Assembly (NCBI GenBank): GCA_030647485.1
Contig: JAUSJT010000004.1
Location: 109,088-173,087 of the forward strand
DNA length: 64,000 nt
Source of the DNA: a bacterium
Lineage (GTDB): Bacteria > Patescibacteriota > Minisyncoccia > Minisyncoccales > UBA10102
Reading direction: 5' to 3'
In this document: piece by piece, positions 12,725 to 14,119 of the stretch
Layout of the letters: each line of letters begins with the position of its first letter
How positions within the stretch are numbered: position 1 is the stretch's first letter
Notes under the pieces: generated by a model
Databases searched by the model: none
Seen by the model: only the letters and a program-made list of their open reading frames with translations
Told to the model about the DNA's origin: nothing
Program-made: the position numbers and the translations under genes

Positions 12725-14119
12725 ATGAACAAAGGCACTATTGTACAAATCATGGGGCCGGTCGTAGATGTGGAGTTTTCAGACTCTCTTCCTCCTTTGC
12801 GCCAGGCTCTCTCTATTAAGACCCCCGCCTCCGCTGAAGCTACGGCGGGCAAGCAAGAAAGGCAGGTTGTTTTGGAAGTTGCCCAACACCTGGGGGGAAA
12901 CAGGGTAAGAACTATTGCAATGAATTCTACTGACGGGCTGCAGAGGAAAATGGAGGTTGAAGATACCGGAAACACCATGACGGTTCCTATAGGGGAAGAG
13001 GTGTTGGGCCGTATGTTCAACGTGCTGGGCGCTCCCATTGACGGAGGACCGGAACTTCCCACGAGCGTTGCCCGTGCTTCTATATACCAGCCAGCCCCGT
13101 CTTTGCAAGACCAGAAGGTAGAGCCTGAAATCTTTGAAACAGGAATTAAGGTTATTGATCTTTTATGCCCATTCCTCAAAGGAGGGAAAGTTGGGTTGTT
13201 TGGGGGAGCAGGAGTTGGGAAGACCGTGCTTTTGCAAGAGCTCATCCATAACACCGCAAAGGCGCACGGAGGATATTCCGTGTTTGCGGGGGTTGGGGAG
13301 AGAACAAGAGAAGGAAATGATTTATATAGGGAAATGAAAGAGTCTGGGGTGCTAAAGAACACCGCGCTTGTATTCGGCCAAATGAACGAGGTTCCGGGCG
13401 CAAGATTCCGCGCTGCCTTGACCGGATTGCGCATTGCAGAGTATTTCCGAGATGACAAACGTAAAGACGTCCTCTTGTTCATAGACAACATCTTCAGGTT
13501 CGTGCAGGCAGGGTCTGAAGTATCCGTGCTTTTAGGAAGAATGCCTTCTGCGGTAGGATACCAGCCCACGCTTGCTACGGATATGGGAGCCTTGCAAGAG
13601 CGCATCACGTCTACAAAATCAGGGTCTATCACTTCCGTACAGGCCATTTACGTGCCTGCAGACGATATTACAGATCCTGCTCCCGCAACAACCTTCTCCC
13701 ATTTGGATTCTACCATTGTGCTTTCTCGAGAATTGGCTTCTTTGGGTATTTATCCTGCAGTGGATCCTTTAGATTCCAGATCTTCTGCTTTAGACCCCAG
13801 GATTATAGGGAAAGAACATTATGATACAGCACGGGCAGTACAGAAGATTCTCCAAAGATACAAAGAATTGCAAGATATTATTGCTATACTTGGCATGGAA
13901 GAGCTTTCTGAAGACGACAAGCTTATCGTGGCAAGAGCACGAAGGATTCAGAGGTTTCTTTCCCAGCCCTTCTCGGTTGCAGAAACATTTACGGGCAGGC
14001 CGGGGAAACATGTAAGCAAGGAAGAGACCATACGGGGCTTTGCGGAAATTCTGGCAGGAAAGCACGATGCTAAAGAAGAGTCCGCCTTCTATTTGAAGGG
14101 TGGCATAGATGAGGTGTAA
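12725..14119 (+). CDS. atpD: F0F1 ATP synthase subunit beta
   Basis: 464 aa; GGAGVGKT P-loop, ...[14 protein letters not shown]... Confidence 0.97.
12824..12853 (+). repeat. 30-nt GC-rich palindromic segment inside atpD (in frame, [10 protein letters not shown])
   Basis: CCCGCCTCCGCTG..GCTACGGCGGGCAAG; the same 13-mer and 15-mer occur in rpsS at 38664-38714 in the same codon phase. Confidence 0.6.

Follow-up and report, generated by a model that had tools for sequence, protein, structure and literature searches.

A 30-nt palindromic unit inserted in frame in atpD of a Patescibacteria genome probably belongs to a dispersed, hairpin-forming repeat family

A GC-rich palindromic segment of 30 nt (CCCGCCTCCGCTGAAGCTACGGCGGGCAAG) lies within atpD, the gene for the F1 beta subunit of ATP synthase, in a Patescibacteria metagenome-assembled genome (MAG; GCA_030647485.1). 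The window analyzed here is a 64-kb stretch of contig JAUSJT010000004.1 (64,000 nt, positions 109,088 to 173,087 of the forward strand), and all coordinates below refer to it. Our analysis indicates that the atpD segment is, with high probability, a recent insertion of a dispersed repeat family. The family consists of GC-rich hairpin units of ~30 bp resembling repetitive extragenic palindromes (REPs) and Rickettsia palindromic elements (RPEs), and we consider it very likely to have been recently active and to be tolerated in protein loops.

Results

Insertion of a 30-nt unit in atpD

The features of the atpD locus are as follows.

12725-14119, plus strand: host gene atpD, F1 beta subunit, 464 aa, intact open reading frame (ORF), from the ORF listing and homologues
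12824-12853, plus strand: element copy with the intact consensus, inside atpD, AtpD residues 34-43, read directly
12824-12829, plus strand: left stem arm CCCGCC, predicted to pair with 12844-12849
12844-12849, plus strand: right stem arm GGCGGG, from the fold prediction
12850-12853, plus strand: one-sided 4-nt tail CAAG, whose last base is position +27, the end of positional conservation

Direct reading of 12824-12853 bore out the description given in an earlier sequence-only reading: the segment is composed of a 13-mer (CCCGCCTCCGCTG), AA and a 15-mer (GCTACGGCGGGCAAG), i.e., 10 codons, and is codon-aligned with its host gene at an offset of 99 from the start at 12725, in the same phase as a second copy in rpsS. 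The atpD product is 100% identical to protein P0001, 'F0F1 ATP synthase subunit beta', and carries the Pfam domains PF02874, PF00006 and PF22919. AtpD and ribosomal protein S19 each have a 100% identical counterpart on one MAG contig, and by both proteins the best relatives belong to the Patescibacteria (Wildermuthbacteria, Parcubacteria, Paceibacterota).

Comparison with these relatives identified the ten residues as an insertion. The nearest AtpD proteins (P0003-P0006, 92% identity, 454 aa) read IKT-NEKQVV, and the window AtpD has exactly ten residues more. In the DNA of the sister L007, ATT AAG ACT is followed directly by AAT GAG AAG CAG, whereas in the window ATT AAG ACC and CAA GAA AGG CAG are separated by the 30 nt. 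A blind MAFFT alignment of 6.8 kb between the window and the sister genome placed a single 30-nt gap exactly at 12824-12853, and no relative was found to encode these residues with unrelated codons. When the atpD site was compared with the sister DNA, neither a target duplication nor flanking homology or microhomology at the junctions was detected. The element was not found in any other AtpD homologue listed for the window AtpD, and the homologue search returned the atpD copy from one assembly only; the copy is pristine and private to the window genome.

The site lies directly before the segment VLEVAQHLG, in a loop whose length differs among relatives and among solved F1-beta structures, as the sequence-only reading had supposed. 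Alignment to the solved F1-beta chains assigns the insert to a loop of the N-terminal β-barrel, where the beta subunit of Bacillus PS3 has its own longer loop. Several AtpD relatives (P0002/P0007, P0012, P0016 and P0048) carry unrelated inserts (AGRSGSEEPSGS, EEAAEGEPRPAGRGT, DSRGSVQEGRNME and AKGGSAAGG); those of P0002/P0007, P0012 and P0016 share the loop with the element, and that of P0048 occupies a neighbouring loop of the N-terminal barrel. The unrelated inserts in the loop of relatives therefore mark the site as tolerant of insertions. In an AlphaFold model built from a shallow alignment, poor overall (mean predicted local distance difference test score, pLDDT, 63) with the barrel at ~90, strands 27-33 and 46-57 are joined by a coil that contains residues 34-43; the pLDDT is <50 for residues 37-43. 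The structural comparison thus depicts the site as a flexible excursion, and the insert is most simply modelled as a tolerated one at a β-hairpin turn of the N-terminal barrel. For AtpD itself, it is probably a neutral or near-neutral passenger at this turn of the N-terminal crown domain.

An older, split copy in rpsS

The second copy resides in the gene of ribosomal protein S19 and is composed of three parts.

38349-38747, plus strand: host gene rpsS, encoding S19 (132 aa), whose Ala/Pro-rich C-terminal tail is typical of the clade, from the ORF listing and homologues
38664-38676, plus strand: left part of the copy, 13 nt, exact match to the atpD 13-mer, in the C-terminal tail of S19
38677-38699, plus strand: centre of the copy, 23 nt in place of 2 (net +21 nt; residues GPARPAG), from the comparison with L001 and L002
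38700-38714, plus strand: right part of the copy, 15 nt, exact match to the atpD 15-mer

The shared 13-mer and 15-mer at 38664-38714, already pointed out from the sequence alone, were found as described, separated by 23 nt instead of 2. The copy is codon-aligned (offset 315 from the rpsS start at 38349) and reads as 17 residues. These are the only exact matches of the two words elsewhere in the window, and no further element copy was detected in the 64 kb at ≤10 mismatches. The claim that such a match exceeds chance holds: the 15-mer is expected 0.01 times in the window, and two or more matches occurred in 0 of 100 shuffles. The accompanying description of the genome as AT-leaning is fair but mild, as the GC content of the window is 43-50%.

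Orthologous copies are present in related genomes in substituted form. The corresponding stretch reads CCC GCC TCC GCT GAA GCT GTC GCG GGC AAA in L001 and CCC GCC TCC GCT GGA GCT ACG GCG GGC GAG in L002 and L003, while that of L004 is more diverged and has its own expanded centre. At the centre of the copy, L001 and L002 have only GAA and GGA, respectively, without the 23 nt. More distant S19 tails (P0131, P0132, P0134, P0135 and P0126) have no motif and are ~10 residues shorter exactly there. Given the substituted orthologous copies and the motif-free, shorter tails, the rpsS copy is therefore also an insertion. Its sequence comparisons portray it as an old copy that came down with the S19 tail, is decaying and, in the window genome, has been split by a secondary insertion of 21 nt. 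The centre itself (GACCTGCCCGTCCGGCAGGCGGG) contains its own palindrome, CCTGCC...GGCAGG; on manual inspection, it tentatively resembles a truncated inverted element copy (16/21 nt, one 9-nt gap) and could be a nested insertion or a chance likeness in GC-rich sequence.

Dispersal across genomes and metagenomes

Public genomes (185,579 species representatives) and metagenomes were scanned with the pattern CGCCTCCGCTG-N(0-30)-GCTACGGCGGG, which yielded at least 118 genome stretches and at least 120 metagenome stretches. The centre was 2 nt long in 198 of the 240 matches listed and was AA, the atpD form, in 170 of those 198. After removal of duplicate flanks, at least 167 distinct contexts remained, at least 49 of them with the full 30-mer verbatim. 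Flank GC ranged from 0.31 to 0.73, and the chance expectation of the 24-mer in 596 Gb is 0.004. All of these loci were chosen for an exact 22-nt core; the taxon labels of MAGs are fallible, and frame calls in high-GC contigs are noisy.

The genome matches listed (at least 118) were all from MAGs or uncultured organisms, with no cultured isolate among them. The Patescibacteria hosts include Saccharibacteria and Nealson-, Falkow-, Davies-, Doudna-, Magasanik-, Sungii-, Staskawicz- and Moranii-bacteria. Many hosts are Acidobacteriota (Vicinamibacterales, Terriglobia), and scattered labels refer to Verrucomicrobiota, Planctomycetota, Bacteroidota, Myxococcota, Gemmatimonadota, Elusimicrobiota, Armatimonadota and proteobacterial groups. 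The sequence-only reading had suggested that the segment may be an RPE-like, coding-tolerated palindromic element in the lineage of the window. The RPE-like character is supported by our data; the element is not confined to this lineage, as near-verbatim copies occur across phyla, nor is it a member of the RPE family itself. Searches of open-access text under the exact DNA core, the sub-family peptides and the concept returned no description of the element.

The frames are used more evenly on high-GC contigs, where many copies fall between genes and often form the loop of AGGCCGACCT...AGGTCGGCCT hairpins. An inverted, diverged partner lies beside the unit in L186, L199, L096 and L172; solitary units dominate. 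One Acidobacteriota MAG (MFD00962.bin.1.162) contains at least 13 copies over 9 contigs. Its loci L024, L030, L034, L040, L059, L064, L074, L078, L100, L112 and L118, together with the metagenome contig L162, represent a MITE (a miniature transposable element with inverted repeats) of ~190 nt that carries the 24-nt core at its centre between long terminal inverted repeats (CGTTTTCCAGATC...GTGTTCCGG / CCGGAACAC...GATCTGGAAAACG). A reading of the many copies in this MAG as independent insertions was rejected, the core hitch-hiking in an amplified MITE.

A degenerate family pattern matched 73-91 stretches on viral-classed contigs, mostly of 60-70% GC, with GC-richer codon variants in all frames. 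On one of these (L274), the identical peptide is encoded by different codons. The IMG/VR contigs L248-L374 carry GC-richer sub-families in six frames, with the recurrent peptides RLRQGFGGQ, RRSFSEGG, PPSLKLRRTS and SAFAKATADK. The family read in other frames probably accounts for many odd 'hypothetical protein' motifs from soil metagenomes, the first three of these peptides being examples. The statement that the element is absent from viruses was considered and dropped as too strong: only the exact consensus is missing there, and sub-family variants occur on viral-classed contigs.

Anatomy of the unit and covariation of its stem

The unit is composed of a 6-bp stem (CCCGCC/GGCGGG), a 14-nt loop and the one-sided CAAG tail. 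Across unique contexts, positional conservation extends from -2 to +27 only, with CC at the start in 94-98%; the tail bases C, A, A and G are conserved in 74, 75, 95 and 65% of low-GC contexts. Outside these limits, base frequencies are those of the background, except for a codon-like periodicity of G. Target-site duplications were not detected at 24 boundary definitions with k = 2-6, and flank matches equalled those of the shuffled control.

The inverted repeat CCCGCC/GGCGGG noted in the sequence-only reading is recovered by the predicted fold, with an ordinary energy: the free energy (dG) of the single-stranded DNA hairpin is -6.1 / -7.4 kcal/mol for the two strands. As this stability is not significant, the structural argument rests on covariation instead. 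Diverged secondary copies beside primary matches were collected (55; none expected in shuffles), and in the 44 of them with ≤7 mismatches, stem pairs altered on both sides stayed paired 12 times and broke once. Since the genome and metagenome scans demanded perfect arms, covariation was retested on the viral-contig collection with two stem positions free per arm. Among 92 unique copies, 63 were non-consensus, and 28 of these 63 were fully compensated, with six pair types; 2000 shuffles gave a mean of 10 and a maximum of 19. One compensated example was CCCTCC...GGAGGG, seen 21 times. The compensatory changes therefore place the stem under selection beyond what coding constraints explain and, by the same token, imply that the folded single strand, DNA or RNA, matters for propagation.

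The loop also falls into sub-families (PAFAKASAGK, PAFAEASAGK and SAFAKATADK), as expected for a replicating family. The sub-family CCCGCCTTCGCTAAAGCTTCGGCGGGCAAG, which reads PAFAKASAGK, was found in the S19 tail of P0127, and arrays of the PAFAKASAGK-type unit occur in YbeY and in a lipoyl-domain linker.

Reading frame and host genes

The unit has a length divisible by three; two of its six frames contain a stop and the other four are open.

Frame +1: ten-residue flexible hydrophilic peptide, the decapeptide of the atpD copy
Frame +2: PPPLKLRRA
Frame +3: stop
Frame -1: open, ten residues
Frame -2: LPAVASAEA
Frame -3: stop

In low-GC contexts, frame +1 is used by 50 of the 62 copies lying in long open frames among the matches listed, and several apparent cases of frames -2 and -1 are antisense of L7/L12 genes. 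About 80% of the listed copies from low-GC genomes are situated in housekeeping genes and encode the +1 decapeptide. Sense copies outnumber antisense copies by ~10:1, even though the -2 peptide, LPAVASAEA, seems no less benign.

At least 50 in-frame copies were located in housekeeping genes outside the window. The hosts recognized with Pfam include AtpA (L044), AtpD (L086), EF-G, BipA, ValRS, IleRS, MetRS, a class II aminoacyl-tRNA synthetase, UvrA, L19, S1, trigger factor, GrpE, Fe/Mn superoxide dismutase, a P-type ATPase, glutamate dehydrogenase and a DNA methylase, among others. The AtpD of L086, from another lineage, has the element in the same loop as the window AtpD; relative to the LE[VT] strand the two copies lie two residues apart and are therefore independent events. 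The AtpA copy of L044 is not a clean gain of ten residues compared with the window or the sister genome. Its net difference is +3, so this event involved a deletion or a different ancestral loop.

A recurrent position is in rplL, encoding L7/L12, which carries the element in at least eight Patescibacteria lineages (L017, L087, L130, L143, L156, L159, L216 and L242). In these eight, the element abuts EEK(S/T)xF at the junction of the hinge and the C-terminal domain. A second rplL copy in an N-terminal extension is exact in L046 and L103 and diverged in L216 and L242.

Other repeats and genes in the window

The window also harbors repeats of other kinds. A MITE-like repeat of ~156-168 nt is present in three copies (8121-8288, 38749-38916 and 40724-40891; 89-93% identical) with the terminal inverted repeats ATGCCCCGTATGAAATTTAC ... 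GTAAATTTCTAACGGGGTAT. Two of its copies lie in spacers of the S10 ribosomal operon, between rpsS and rplV and downstream of rplP, and are not in the sister genome. A second family, of ~94-98 nt, was found at 12613-12724, in an inverted copy at 48646-48739 and in partial copies at 59236-59273 and 28967-28994, with the common motif CCCCGTGTAGGAAA. This repeat fills the spacer between atpG and atpD up to the atpD start codon; the two genes abut in the sister genome. Two further intergenic insertions are specific to the window relative to the sister genome, 39421-39509 (89 nt), which has the internal inverted repeats GAATGTTAGA...TCTAACATTC, and 15011-15080 (70 nt).

The sister L004 has a repeat of its own (106-107 nt, ATGAATCCCGAACGAGATTT...) in two ribosomal-operon spacers, at the equivalents of window positions 36522 and 37560. 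At the equivalent of 37181, it carries a 22-nt GC hairpin (TCCGCCTCAACGGCGGATGCGC) in an N-terminal extension of rplW, whose arms resemble the TCCGCC/GGCGGA sub-family of the element.

Between rpsJ and rplC lies a MerR/HTH_17-type gene (ORF 34296-35012) with a 42-nt direct repeat on either side (34188-34229 and 35324-35365, 90% identical), the repeated unit being a terminator-like hairpin, AACCGCCACGGAGGCGGTTTTT; the gene and its repeats may form a small cassette inserted in the ribosomal gene cluster. Of two other ORFs, at 27246-28022 and 280-1122, one has the homing-endonuclease-associated HNH_repeat and the other is a PD-(D/E)XK nuclease. Six sizeable ORFs had no match in Pfam: 2691-3491, 6455-7687 (minus strand), 26793-27179 (minus strand), 52735-53808, 54088-55353 and 59348-60736 (minus strand). 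An Rfam scan of the whole window at the gathering threshold returned no RNA family, not even a tRNA or a ribosomal-protein leader.

Discussion

The unit arrives as a precisely bounded 30-nt block that leaves no target-site duplication, as observed at the atpD site. In compact low-GC genomes, the copies lie in surface loops, linkers and tails of housekeeping proteins and encode the hydrophilic +1 decapeptide in nearly all cases; a copy probably survives only if its peptide does no harm. The compensatory substitutions in the stem imply a role of the folded strand in propagation, and a trans-acting enzyme recognizing the hairpin in single-stranded DNA may mobilize the unit. By analogy with REPs, which are served by HUH/Y1 transposases (the REP-associated tyrosine transposase, RAYT, or IS200/IS605 TnpA), mobilization might be of the HUH type, a doubtful but conceivable route suggested by the hairpin with its one-sided tetranucleotide, the missing duplication and the ~10:1 sense bias.

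It is also possible, and we put this forward tentatively, that the family is active in parallel, now or very recently, across distant phyla (many Patescibacteria classes, Acidobacteriota, the Planctomycetes-Verrucomicrobia-Chlamydiae superphylum and Bacteroidota), placing the same decapeptide into essential proteins, with a mobilizing enzyme that would be widely conserved or horizontally supplied.

Several observations weigh against a recently active family of this kind. None of 30 non-ribosomal ORFs of the window encodes a transposase, recombinase or reverse transcriptase. The copy number is low (2 in 64 kb), the tail is CAAG/CTTG and not the GTAG or CGTC of the described REP super-families, and the stability of the hairpin is ordinary for its composition (z = -1.0 / -1.6 vs shuffles). 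Scans of IMG/VR (2.9 M contigs), the plasmids of PLSDB, the phages of GenBank and 5,426 complete E. coli genomes gave no match to the exact consensus. The near-identity across phyla is unlike that of normal REPs, no vector was identified, and this reading does not account for the identity of 30 nt from Saccharibacteria to Vicinamibacterales. Finally, the rplL element is 87-100% identical between lineages compared with 54-79% for the next 120 nt of coding sequence, an effect whose size is uncertain in a sample selected for exact cores. Random insertion followed by neutral decay does not predict this L7/L12 pattern, which points either to a strong hotspot, to re-written old copies or to a nucleotide-level constraint. 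The pattern at the L7/L12 hinge suggests that the element may favour certain junctions or renew old copies of itself.

Among the alternatives, the one that survives best sees in the unit a selected module and not selfish DNA. It would spread and be retained either because its peptide is useful, as a flexible linker, a tag or a site of modification, or because its hairpin, in mRNA or DNA, is a signal bound by a conserved factor. The strong preference for frame +1, the maintained stem, the recurrence in linkers and tails, and the use of one L7/L12 hinge junction in 8 lineages, with the element better conserved than the neighbouring coding DNA, would all suit such a module. Against it, the hosts have no function in common, the insertions are in loops and linkers, close relatives thrive without the atpD copy, and the rpsS copy, besides being interrupted in the window, is decaying in relatives at roughly the local rate. 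Moreover, all frames are used on high-GC and viral-classed contigs, and a peptide function would not preserve synonymous positions. We regard a selected module as unlikely.

A single event of ectopic gene conversion, or of template switching during repair, might have carried a short stretch of the rpsS tail into atpD, with no dedicated mobile element taking part. This would agree with the native look of the motif in the S19 tails of relatives, with the window genome being the only carrier in atpD, and with both copies lying on one strand 26 kb apart. The atpD centre is nonetheless the GAA of the global consensus and not the resident 23-nt rpsS centre, the junctions have no flanking homology or microhomology, and the element occurs in at least 167 unrelated contexts elsewhere, including the AtpD of another lineage. 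This very unlikely origin was dropped after the public scans, which showed the atpD form to be the global consensus in many unrelated contexts.

Comparably improbable, and slightly more so, is an uptake signal of the DNA uptake sequence/uptake signal sequence (DUS/USS) type, built up by biased uptake and recombination in competent, DNA-scavenging bacteria. Such sequences of Neisseria and Haemophilus occupy preferred frames where they fall within genes and make up inverted pairs at terminators, and Patescibacteria probably rely on the import of DNA or nucleotides. The frame preference of the element, and its position as the loop of terminator-like hairpins in Acidobacteriota, are reminiscent of this. 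Its density of ~1 per 32 kb in the window, against ~1 per kb, is too low, the atpD copy is a clean 30-nt insertion and not a set of point mutations, and identity across phyla would need a shared receptor specificity.

An assembly, sequencing or contamination artefact planting one oligonucleotide in many metagenome assemblies is highly improbable. The at least 118 genome matches all come from MAGs, with no cultured isolate, and the atpD copy is in a single assembly, as an artefact would have it. Yet in four independent datasets (Logan, two NCBI MAGs and the Joint Genome Institute, JGI) the orthologues of the rpsS copy have diverged together with their genes. Many projects contributed to the matches, and at least 13 copies, spread over 9 contigs, are in one MAG. 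Copies also stand in frame within conserved genes, sub-families show compensatory changes, and some loci recur in different samples with flank variation. Convergence of low-complexity Ala/Pro/Gly-rich loops with GC-rich codons, which both Ala-rich, length-tolerant sites and the Ala/Pro-rich S19 tails of the clade might evoke, has a negligible chance of being right and is refuted by nucleotide identity: the match is exact at the codon level over 28-30 nt in genomes of 31-73% GC, with sharp boundaries, where 0.004 occurrences are expected.

A recently active REP/RPE-like family thus remains our preferred reading. In-frame palindromic 'selfish DNA' has so far been mainly a Rickettsia curiosity, aside from a handful of intragenic REPs, each specific to its species; the 30 bases described here lie in genes of essential proteins from 31%-GC Patescibacteria to 73%-GC Acidobacteriota. 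Should the family be active in parallel across distant phyla, no smaller or more promiscuous in-frame mobile element would be known from bacteria, and the unit would naturally mark DNA passing between ultra-small episymbionts and the organisms around them. If the family is active, it would be a recurrent source of insertions in loops and linkers of life's most conserved proteins, with consequences for how candidate-phyla proteins are aligned, placed in phylogenies and modelled. Recent DNA exchange among unculturable organisms could then be traced by its sub-families and by the presence or absence of copies, and a footprint-free mover of a 30-nt hairpin would be of mechanistic and biotechnological interest.

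Comparison with known systems

RPEs (Ogata et al. 2000; summarised in PMC3733652) are reportedly palindromic repeats found in frame in functional, often essential genes, where they are said to add a surface peptide in loops and at termini. Those of the RPE-1 type measure about 100-150 bp and are confined to Rickettsia, and we know of no transposase associated with them. The element resembles RPEs in its in-frame insertion that leaves the ORF intact, its hairpin-forming palindrome and its location in loops and tails. It is set apart by length (30 bp), host (a Patescibacteria MAG) and distribution, being near-verbatim across phyla.

With its 30 nt and 6-bp arms, the element differs from MITEs, which derive from insertion sequences with a DDE transposase, measure 70-300 bp and have terminal inverted repeats of 15-30 bp, and it lacks a target-site duplication. 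The GC clusters of yeast mitochondria and the 'byp' elements of Magnusiomyces are likewise GC-rich palindromic mobile inserts (~30-50 bp) in protein genes of a lower-GC genome. They are, however, organellar, and byps are skipped by translational bypassing, whereas the element has a length of 3n, is open and is apparently translated. The element shares with DUS/USS a short conserved sequence, a preferred coding frame and hairpins downstream of genes; uptake sequences, in contrast, are 100-fold denser, species-specific, and arise by mutation and biased recombination and not by block insertion.

In its dimensions the element resembles REPs, which are stem-loops of 20-40 bp with a stem of 5-13 bp and a loop of 2-20 nt (Table 1, PMC3733652). 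The element, with 30 nt, a 6-bp stem and a 14-nt loop, falls within this range and has a one-sided conserved tetranucleotide. GTAG- and CGTC-tagged REPs have been described inside uvrA, tRNA-synthetase and other genes, where they were argued to form flexible linkers or loops (Di Nocera et al. 2013, PMC3733652). The element is similarly intragenic in uvrA and tRNA synthetases, in linkers and loops, and the missing target duplication is as expected for HUH-type mobilization. REPINs replicate as inverted doublets; at some Acidobacteriota loci the element stands beside an inverted, diverged partner, but solitary units dominate. None of the element-family peptides is in the intragenic-REP table of Di Nocera et al. 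(PMC3733652). The tail also differs, being CAAG (CTTG on the other strand) and not GTAG/CGTC; GTAG is confined to the minus strand of the element loop and has not been kept in the sub-families. No cognate RAYT (a Y1/HUH transposase) was found among 30 ORFs of the window. There, the element has 2 copies per 64 kb, both intragenic, compared with the high copy number and mainly extragenic location of REPs, a feature partly seen in Acidobacteriota with their intergenic hairpins and the at least 13 copies within a MITE of one MAG. REP families are bound to a species or genus, and their REPIN arrangements are described as vertically inherited (PMC3733652; PMC3337134, Bertels & Rainey), whereas the element occurs in many phyla.

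[quoted passage not shown] PARCELs are, however, 25-residue amphipathic repeats in tandem arrays within ORFs of unknown function, often membrane proteins, whereas the element contributes 10 residues, is mostly solitary and inhabits housekeeping proteins. Together, these comparisons place the element in a known kind, the in-frame REP/RPE-like palindrome; within this kind it is a new variant that stands out by how small it is, by the frame in which it is mostly read and by its near-identical copies in uncultured bacteria of many phyla.

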